The translations under genes were made by a program, and so were the position numbers. The notes below the pieces were generated by a model, which was not told the DNA's origin, did no database searches, and saw only the letters and a program-made list of their open reading frames with translations. DNA of 63,563 bases, filler included, from Kipferlia bialata (lineage: Eukaryota): the NCBI GenBank assembly GCA_003568945.1. It is 6 parts of 6 records of this genome, joined end to end, with 100 filler letters (N's around TTAATTAATTAA, not from the genome) between each part and the next. Parts side by side here need not be neighbours in the genome. Positions count along the whole stretch, not along the records: positions 27,163 to 40,625 come from BDIP01000943.1; 5 more parts are not named here. One strand, 5' to 3'. Position 1 is the stretch's first letter. Each line of letters begins with the position of its first letter. Shown in pieces: positions 39,197-40,725 of this stretch.

Positions 39197-40147
39197 CTAC
39201 TCACTTGGATACTCCTCCCCAACACCCTTGTGCTGGATCCCGAGGAAGCAACCACGCTTCTGGGGGAAGGGGGAACCCTTGCCAGGACGCACGTTGCGGT
39301 TGAACTTGATGCCAATCTGCAGGAGGGCTGGCTTGATGTCGGTCAGCTCGAAGTTGAGGATGCGGGCCACCTCCTTGGAATAGACCCTGTCGTTGTCGTC
39401 GCGAGTGATGACGAAGTGCTCCTCGAAGGCGGCCAGAACAGGTGCATTGTCATCGCATACCACCTAGGGTTAGGGTCAAGCAGATATATATTACCTATAT
39501 TATACATTACAACAATACCTTGAACTGATCACGGAGCTCTGGGACAAGACCCAGTGTCTTCTGCTCGTAGTAGCGCTTGGCATACTGCGCCAGCATGGCG
39601 AAGAAGGTGGTCCGGACCTGGATGTAATCAAACCTGGACACATAGTCCTTGACCTTGCGGTGATGACGCGGCTTGAGGGACGCCTCCTGGCCCTCAGGGA
39701 CCTCCACAAACCTGGAAATCAGAACGATTACTAGTAGTAACAGTAGAGAGCACTAATAGTAGTAATAGTGGTACTATTCAGTAATGTATTATTACTGAAC
39801 ACAACACTTACTTGTTCTTGTACAGGCAGGTCAGACCACGCCTGCGGATGCCCTCGTCGACATCAAAGACTGGCTGCATGTTGCTGATGAAGTTGAGCTT
39901 GCCTATGAGACGGACAGACTCTGCCTCAGCCTGGTGGATCCTGACCAAGGAGACGTTGCCCCCACTCACAAACTGGCATCAGTATGGTGTGGTTATACAT
40001 AGAGAGAGAAAGTCATATATACCTCCTTGATCAGAGCTGTGTCCAGCTTGTCCTCATCAAGCTCCTCTACGACTATGAACCGCTTGCCCTTGCACTTGAG
40101 AAGGAACTTGTCCCGATGGTAGTAGTTCTTCTGGAAGGCGCGGCGGT
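39197..40147 (-). CDS. D5-like superfamily-3 helicase (C-terminal part) with spliceosomal introns; exons 40147-40023, 39972-39812, 39711-39519, 39463-39197
   Basis: Spliced product RRAFQKNYYHRDKFLLKCKGKRFIVVEELDEDKLDTALIKE|FVSGGNVSLVRIHQAEAESVRLIGKLNFISNMQPVFDVDEGIRRRGLTCLYKNK|FVEVP... shows SF3 Walker B (RFIVVEE), motif C (KLNFISN) and the Arg finger (DEGIRRR). GT-AG introns keep the frame. Confidence 0.85.
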
Positions 40148-40725
40148 CTGGATGTCAGATGTTAGTAGGGGCTATATAGAGAGAGACATGCCCATGATGG
40201 GGACCTATATATAGACAGGGAGAGACATACACAGTCATAGTGATGAGAGGGATATATATATATAGAGAGAGATGCATGTACAGTCTATTCTGGAATGAGT
40301 GATGGGGAGGGGGTATACATATATATATATAGAGAGAGACTAATAGAGACAGGCCCAGTGATAGAGGGGGGAATATATATAGAGATACATACATAGCTTA
40401 TTCTGGAATGAGGGAGGGGAGGGGGTATACATAGAGAGAGATACAGGCCCAGTGATAGAGGGGACATATATATATAGTTATACATACACAGCATATTCTG
40501 GAATGAGGGAGGAGAGGGGGTATACATATATATACAGAACAATAGAGACAGGCCCAGTGATAGAGGGGACATATATATATATAGAGAGAGAGAGAGATAC
40601 ATACACAGCCTATTCTGGAATGAGTNNNNNNNNNNNNNNNNNNNNNNNNNNNNNNNNNNNNNNNNNNNNTTAATTAATTAANNNNNNNNNNNNNNNNNNN
40701 NNNNNNNNNNNNNNNNNNNNNNNNN

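Follow-up and report, generated by a model that had tools for sequence, protein, structure and literature searches.

D5 proteins form hexameric helicases, and the D5-like SF3 helicases and primase-helicases include vaccinia D5, ASFV C962R and Mavirus S3H. In Polinton-like viruses (PLVs), an SF3 helicase is usually paired with a tyrosine recombinase (YR) and 47% of elements have TIRs, according to the available text of two studies (PMC10120064, 10.64898/2026.06.19.733378), and replication genes are described as often lying near one end of the element (available text of 10.64898/2026.07.28.741278). Endogenous PLV genes are treated as intron-free in the accessible parts of PMC10120064 and PMC9356565. 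As far as their available sections describe, surveys of endogenous PLVs have used intron-blind gene callers and contain many elements with no detectable replication gene (PMC10120064, PMC9356565, 10.1101/2025.04.19.649669).

A two-part gene design is reported, in the accessible portion of 10.64898/2026.10.09.758095, for the punuivirus of Chlamydomonas reinhardtii, a giant virus with 506 genes, its own RNA polymerase and demonstrated virion production. Its intron-bearing, host-like genes are expressed in latency, its virion genes stand under a viral AT-rich promoter, and introns, found in 61 of the 506 genes, are linked to latency. Spliceosomal-type introns also occur inside integrated Maverick/Polinton-like elements of dinoflagellates, where the available text of PMC11957031 describes introners that are repeated, transposon-derived and mostly inserted after integration. 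The accessible part of PMC12220804 deals with group I introns only, and that of PMC8516963 describes viral-type replication genes of Carpediemonas without introns and expression.

The locus of Kipferlia bialata described here shares features with each of these systems. Its helicase has the Walker B, motif C and Arg finger of D5-like proteins and matches them by profile and fold; unlike them, the gene carries at least four spliceosomal introns, uses host codons and likely encodes no primase. It stands at one end of a compact, intron-free block whose candidate genes include an ATPase, a YR, a protease and capsids, as in PLVs with a YR and an SF3 helicase (protease-bearing, e.g. the Gossevirus group). 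The two-part design recalls the punuivirus, but the Kipferlia element is predicted to measure only about 19 kb, its spliced gene would be the replicative helicase, and it is known from sequence and RNA contigs. In contrast to the dinoflagellate introners, its introns are mutually unrelated, confined to one gene and spliced in RNA. The Kipferlia assembly is included in Table S1 of PMC10120064, with no other row for it among those listed in the available part. The literature searched, which lay mostly outside subscription journals and set bioRxiv supplements aside, describes neither a PLV in Kipferlia nor a PLV helicase that is spliced.

Structure and splicing of the helicase gene

The window, that is, the whole stretch of 63,563 nt that was analysed, joins unrelated contigs through identical 100-nt spacers at 13484, 27063, 40626, 54181 and 60161 (segments of 13,483, 13,479, 13,463 and 13,455 bp). 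The helicase gene lies on the minus strand at the end of the contig that spans 27163-40625, and because the sequence that follows is an artificial spacer, nothing past 40625 belongs to it. An ORF at 41086-41679 and the sequence beyond were considered as upstream exons and rejected, being on another contig and matching no profile. The gene is organised as follows:

40626..40725: artificial spacer between unrelated contigs
40148..40625, minus strand: upstream intron, incomplete at the contig end (478 nt or more), containing microsatellites and a 95-nt tandem unit
40023..40147, minus strand: helicase exon with Walker B, the first exon in the contig (sequence, RNA, alignment)
39973..40022, minus strand: GT-AG intron, 50 nt, phase 0, skipped by the X2 contig
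39812..39972, minus strand: helicase exon with motif C and Arg finger (sequence, alignment)
39712..39811, minus strand: GT-AG intron, 100 nt, phase 2, skipped by the X2 contig
39519..39711, minus strand: helicase exon (sequence, RNA)
39464..39518, minus strand: GT-AG intron, 55 nt, phase 0, skipped by the X2 and X3 contigs
39197..39463, minus strand: terminal helicase exon with the stop and the C-terminal domain
38810..39196, minus strand: X2 RNA contig past the helicase stop, either 3' UTR or merged convergent transcripts

The helicase gene is spliced and transcribed in the manner of a host gene. A 1,692-nt contig of run X2 skips all three short introns exactly, at the very coordinates that the first-pass annotation had proposed from sequence, and a contig of run X3, from another sample and study, skips the 55-nt intron, the sole one within its reach. 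A lack of spliced reads, which would have spoken against the gene, is thereby refuted. Runs X2 and X3 were taken as RNA because their contigs skip introns, none of the matching runs being recorded as RNA; X1 is a DNA run, possibly the assembly's source, and has its sample in common with X2.

The X2 contig departs from the window exactly at a fourth acceptor, which had also been predicted before 40147, and continues for 557 nt more. At this acceptor, the branch-type motif CTACTAAC lies 16-23 nt ahead of the AG at 40149-40148. The departure of the RNA at this point, together with the three skipped introns, demonstrates at least four real introns. They have the marks of U2-type host splicing (GT-AG ends, a branch signal and removal from RNA), and their branch and acceptor signals resemble those of nine host introns defined by RNA joints on the neighbouring contig. 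In these small samples, the helicase introns are AT-richer (GC 0.31-0.38) than the nine host introns (0.38-0.56).

When spliced, the exons form a single open frame of 248 codons plus stop, as anticipated, against 7 and 9 stops in the other two frames. The description of the introns as frame-preserving does not hold: lengths of 50, 100 and 55 nt include no multiple of three, so the introns are frame-restoring. Introners were rejected as the source of the three short introns: their mutual similarity does not exceed that of shuffled sequences (51, 11 and 151 of 200), and beyond AG/GT a clear target-site duplication is missing, which is not the picture of an introner burst. For the upstream intron, the microsatellites noted previously are present, together with the 95-nt tandem unit, whereas the claimed exon echo was discarded, 59 of 500 shuffles scoring as high. 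Microsatellite-laced tandem units of 50-120 nt, like those of this intron, recur in host contigs (911-1266, 12313-12521, 59915-60121 and 61728-62335).

The gene is already annotated as KIPB_004421, a hypothetical protein of Kipferlia bialata of 250 aa, whose model equals the spliced product except for the first three residues; as the RNA continues upstream in frame, the annotated start is unsupported. Walker A and the D5_N domain lie beyond the contig end. The first 30 nt of RNA past the fourth acceptor encode nine in-frame residues, four of which are identical to the Kipferlia paralog (see below) just after its Walker A. A search for the 5' fragment of the helicase matched none of 57 candidates. 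Two loose contig ends are absent from the window, and the first 30 nt of the DNA loose end encode no part of either Kipferlia helicase. At the opposite end of the gene, 387 nt of the RNA contig extend beyond the stop, 243 of them over the convergent ORF. The RNA contigs of the CEP76-like and BRCT host genes also merge at their convergent ends, so the 3' overlap of the helicase is not special.

The encoded protein and its relatives

The product is a D5-type SF3 helicase. In a 16-sequence alignment (A1), Walker B (E30/E31), K43 of motif B', N75 of motif C and the Arg finger R89 all occupy invariant columns, which bears out the Walker B, motif C and Arg finger first recognised from the sequence. 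The alignment profile matches ASFV C962R (E 2e-18) and poxvirus D5 (E 1e-12), and Pfam DUF5906 and TIGR01613 match the helicase weakly. A structural model (pLDDT 73) again returned C962R/D5 as its fold matches in the PDB. In a fold search of BFVD, the three top matches were giant-virus proteins of Harvfovirus, Barrevirus and Hokovirus, with the Mavirus helicase at rank 4 and the Zamilon helicase at rank 9.

A full scan of 1.84 billion protein representatives gave 441 matches at E 0.001 or better; a word-based search of the helicase (P0001) against longer proteins had returned no match, a sign of that method's insensitivity. The best match is a second Kipferlia protein, KIPB_011040 (P0002), encoded on a different contig and 37-38% identical. 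This paralog of 459 aa comprises D5_N and SF3 domains, has Walker A and lacks a primase. Its contig is 2,781 bp long, a size that could fit a 2,521-bp unitig branching from the repeat at the left of the locus. The next-best matches are environmental D5 helicases (about 30-35% identity), and no relative exceeds 38%. Among the relatives, the P0073 cluster (P0154, P0155) consists of G/A/R/P-rich proteins on NCBI contigs of up to 13,770 bp, which might be host-resident copies in another organism.

The 557 upstream nt of the RNA contig, which is possibly incomplete, are too short for a primase domain. The full protein probably measures about 430-460 aa, with D5_N, AAA+ and C-terminal domains and no primase, an estimate based on the room that the RNA contig leaves for up to 185 more codons and on the same layout in the paralog and in the closest virophage relative. 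In a FastTree phylogeny (the only method used) of 73 rows, comprising 40 of the 150 listed matches and the locus proteins with an outgroup that is not coherent, the two Kipferlia helicases are sisters (support 92), both on long branches and with no supported viral neighbour. Long-branch attraction is a possible cause of this pairing. The D5/SF3 identity proposed at first sight is confirmed; the tree ties the helicase to no PLV clade.

The genomic contexts of the relatives provide further evidence. The helicase alignment fetched 160 loci, of which the 46 closest by score were examined, most being too short to classify. In one element, seen as L001 and L089, a related helicase adjoins Sputnik-type capsids; in L003 and L091 it stands alongside A32 ATPases, and in L119 near a weak capsid match. 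L081, L082 and L100, with RING, T5orf172/HNH or DnaJ genes, are read as giant-virus-like. These contexts indicate a helicase clade common to virophages, PLVs and giant viruses. The helicase type is present in 4 of 80 loci related to the L003 capsid candidate (a PLV family), and another helicase type in 27 of 84 clustered loci. L091 (500-11521) is a metagenomic element that combines the related helicase with an rve-chromo integrase and an A32 ATPase, and a conserved 619-aa ORF in it recurs in L085 and L103. When viral contigs were scanned with one protein at a time (the helicase, the capsid candidate or either of two L091 proteins), no match appeared.

The intronless virus-like block

The remainder of the contig is occupied by 14 open, intronless ORFs that make up 94% of 27163-39052. 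The left boundary and the ORFs to which a feature could be attached are:

27163..27223: inner end of a 1,322-bp repeat, candidate terminal repeat
27517..28266, plus strand: candidate A32-like packaging ATPase (Walker A/B, PLV ATPase profile)
28770..30272, minus strand: candidate tyrosine recombinase (Phage_int_SAM_1 and motifs)
31365..31934, minus strand: candidate cysteine (maturation) protease (H-D-Q-C motif match)
32788..34290, plus strand: candidate double jelly-roll major capsid protein, 500 aa (motif pattern only)
34337..35122, minus strand: candidate minor capsid protein (size and position only)
35203..36381, plus strand: 392-aa ORF, possible fibre, no family match
36434..37282, minus strand: collagen-repeat ORF (PF01391, E 1.4e-5)
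37558..38241, minus strand: 227-aa ORF, hydrophobic by eye, no family match
38309..39052, plus strand: 247-aa ORF, function unassigned, the last ORF of the block, with TATATA

The block is dense, free of introns and compositionally distinct, with a GC content of 0.41-0.48 in the viral ORFs versus 0.57-0.66 in host ORFs. TATATA occurs within 35 nt upstream of 10 of the 14 viral starts, compared with 31 of 505 regional ATGs, and at about -40 in two further viral ORFs. From this gene set and organisation, we infer that the block is a PLV, the label already given to it by the first-pass annotation; the capsid genes were not recovered by profile or fold.

The individual assignments differ in their basis. 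The ATPase matches the PLV ATPase profile over residues 34-216, weakly (E 0.0046 among 16 proteins), and its Walker motifs follow a pattern that we presume for the family. The recombinase matches Phage_int_SAM_1 below the curated cut-off (E 0.0044), and its R..RK..H..Y residues, found by pattern, are those we take to mark a tyrosine recombinase. Similarly, the H-D-Q-C motifs of 31365-31934 are presumably those of the protease, which matched nothing in the library, and the pattern in 32788-34290 is one that we take to denote a major capsid protein. The capsid candidates have no match in Pfam, PHROGs, NCBIfam, PDB, hhalign or the profiles of two PLV families, and a single-sequence fold of the major capsid candidate was uninformative (pLDDT 30). 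As this candidate matched no PLV family tested, the block is assigned to no PLV group. For the 247-aa ORF, Atlas matches stand at chance level only.

Family and profile searches revealed no other replication gene among the 14 ORFs, in line with the original impression of a block lacking one. Only one of the nine viral ORFs looked up (38309-39052) is present in the protein collection, so the element seems unannotated. The X2 and X3 RNA contigs cover none of 27163-38387, with a single 252-nt piece (depth 2.5) at 38475-38726; because contigs show presence rather than absence, this is not counted as proof that the capsid block is silent. A further X1 contig shares 35 nt with the recombinase gene (28928-28962) and has loose ends to either side of them; this may be a low-complexity chance match.

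In codon usage, the helicase departs from this block. Its GC3 is 0.78, against 0.43-0.58 in the 14 viral ORFs, and a leave-one-out codon test scored it at +0.21 bits per codon, among eight host ORFs (+0.14 to +0.40), while all 14 viral ORFs were negative. The exons are therefore host-like, as initially described, and the complete codon split between helicase and viral ORFs points to a different history. The CpG observed/expected ratio of the helicase (0.64) is near that of the viral block (0.66) and unlike that of host genes (0.41), in small samples. The host contig at 13584-27062, with ARM repeat, CEP76-like, BRCT and ribosomal protein S26 genes, served as the control for depth, introns and codons.

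Linkage and copy number

The helicase and the last viral ORF are separated by 144 bp, close to the 145 bp first estimated. In the X1 assembly, a 13,285-bp unitig of depth 452 runs from 27188 to 40472, within the upstream intron, and the X2 RNA contig crosses the same junction and ends at 38810. Both span 39052-39197 without differences, which all but rules out the assembly chimera that had been considered as a possible refutation. The X1 pieces listed include neither a branch nor a loose end at the junction and hence give no sign of an empty-site allele.

At the left, a 1,322-bp unitig of depth 884 forks into the 13,285-bp unitig (452) and the 2,521-bp unitig (451), while four long host unitigs have depths of 434-530. 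With unitig depth as a rough measure of copy number, the locus appears to be single-copy and bounded on the left by a two-copy repeat, 48 bp before the first viral ORF. If the host is diploid, as is probable from the available text of PMC5874029, this depth would mean that the locus is on both chromosomes. No second copy of the repeat was found within the window, and none ahead of the helicase. Should the repeat be terminal, the element would enclose the helicase and have the 2,521-bp branch as its other end; the repeat may, however, be unrelated to the element.

Origin of the helicase gene

The explanation that we favour, at a probability of roughly 55%, is that the helicase serves as replication gene to the integrated Polinton-like element next to it, transcribed by the host beside a capsid module with virus-type promoters. 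A two-copy left repeat that has no counterpart ahead of the helicase is consistent with a terminal repeat that surrounds block and helicase together, and with just two such helicases seen in a genome of 17,389 genes, chance adjacency is unlikely. The gene contexts of the relatives and the lack of another replication gene also favour this reading, which was one of two put forward by the first-pass annotation; it stops short of proof because the contig ends inside the upstream intron. A more specific version is tentative, at somewhat less than even odds: an intact PLV of about 19 kb (unitigs of 1.3 + 13.3 + 2.5 + 1.3 kb plus the intron gap), with a four-intron, host-codon, host-transcribed helicase inside the terminal repeats and an intron-free capsid module under a shared viral promoter.

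Under this explanation, the integrated copy would be transcribed by host RNA polymerase II, and its helicase mRNA spliced by the host spliceosome, under ordinary culture conditions. The protein would assemble into hexamers and would need a primase and polymerase from the host or a helper. Induction would activate the ORFs led by TATATA, among them the ATPase and capsid candidates, at the same time, and excision or integration of the element would fall to the tyrosine recombinase. The introns may have been gained in the element's lineage, or the gene may have been recaptured from a host-adapted copy.

Two points weigh most heavily against this reading, the codon split, which is complete, and the old paralog, since a closest relative that is KIPB_011040, sister in the tree, is what an old host-resident family would be expected to show. 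The giant-virus proteins at the top of the fold search and the absence of a PLV clade in the tree weaken it further. These observations lend weight to a somewhat unlikely alternative, in which the helicase is an anciently domesticated gene of PLV, virophage or giant-virus origin, now serving the host or acting against viruses that invade it, and a younger PLV has landed 3' of it; old viral sequence would then attract insertions, and the PLV would have had no replication gene of its own or have lost it. Host-like codons, the minisatellite-expanded intron, the diverged paralog in the same genome and the giant-virus fold matches agree with such a past, as does the younger look of intact viral ORFs with non-host codons, and viral sequences are reported as hotspots for PLV insertion in the available text of 10.64898/2026.07.28.741278. 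Domestication does not, however, readily account for a stretch between helicase and last viral ORF that shows neither a terminal repeat nor a listed branch, for a viral block of 11.9 kb without its own replication gene, or for a left end that already meets the two-copy repeat just before the first ORF.

A markedly less probable scenario takes the whole locus to be an immobile provirus: once integrated, only its helicase became active and acquired introns, and the capsid block is simply silent. Intron gain after integration is reported for dinoflagellate PLVs (accessible text of PMC11957031), the host has 124,912 introns (available text of PMC5874029), and the locus is single-copy by depth. Four introns, one of them expanded, and a full codon shift nevertheless imply long residence, yet all 14 viral ORFs are open at 94% coding, and the short introns did not arise in an introner burst. 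Chance adjacency or an assembly chimera is very improbable: although this is a short-read assembly with contigs of about 10 kb, of which X1 may be the source run, the junction is spanned without differences by a DNA unitig and a separate RNA contig, and a virus-type helicase is unlikely to lie beside a virus-like block by chance.

Implications

If the helicase is the element's own replication gene, Kipferlia would harbour a small DNA virus that relies on the host spliceosome to express its replication gene. This would extend the split between host-like and virus-like genes from giant viruses to a small virus and tie its replication to the nucleus. If replication genes can be spliced, some of the replication genes missing from PLVs would be detection failures. 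Even under the domestication alternative, the locus would show that a fornicate, a free-living protist, expresses a domesticated family of viral helicases.
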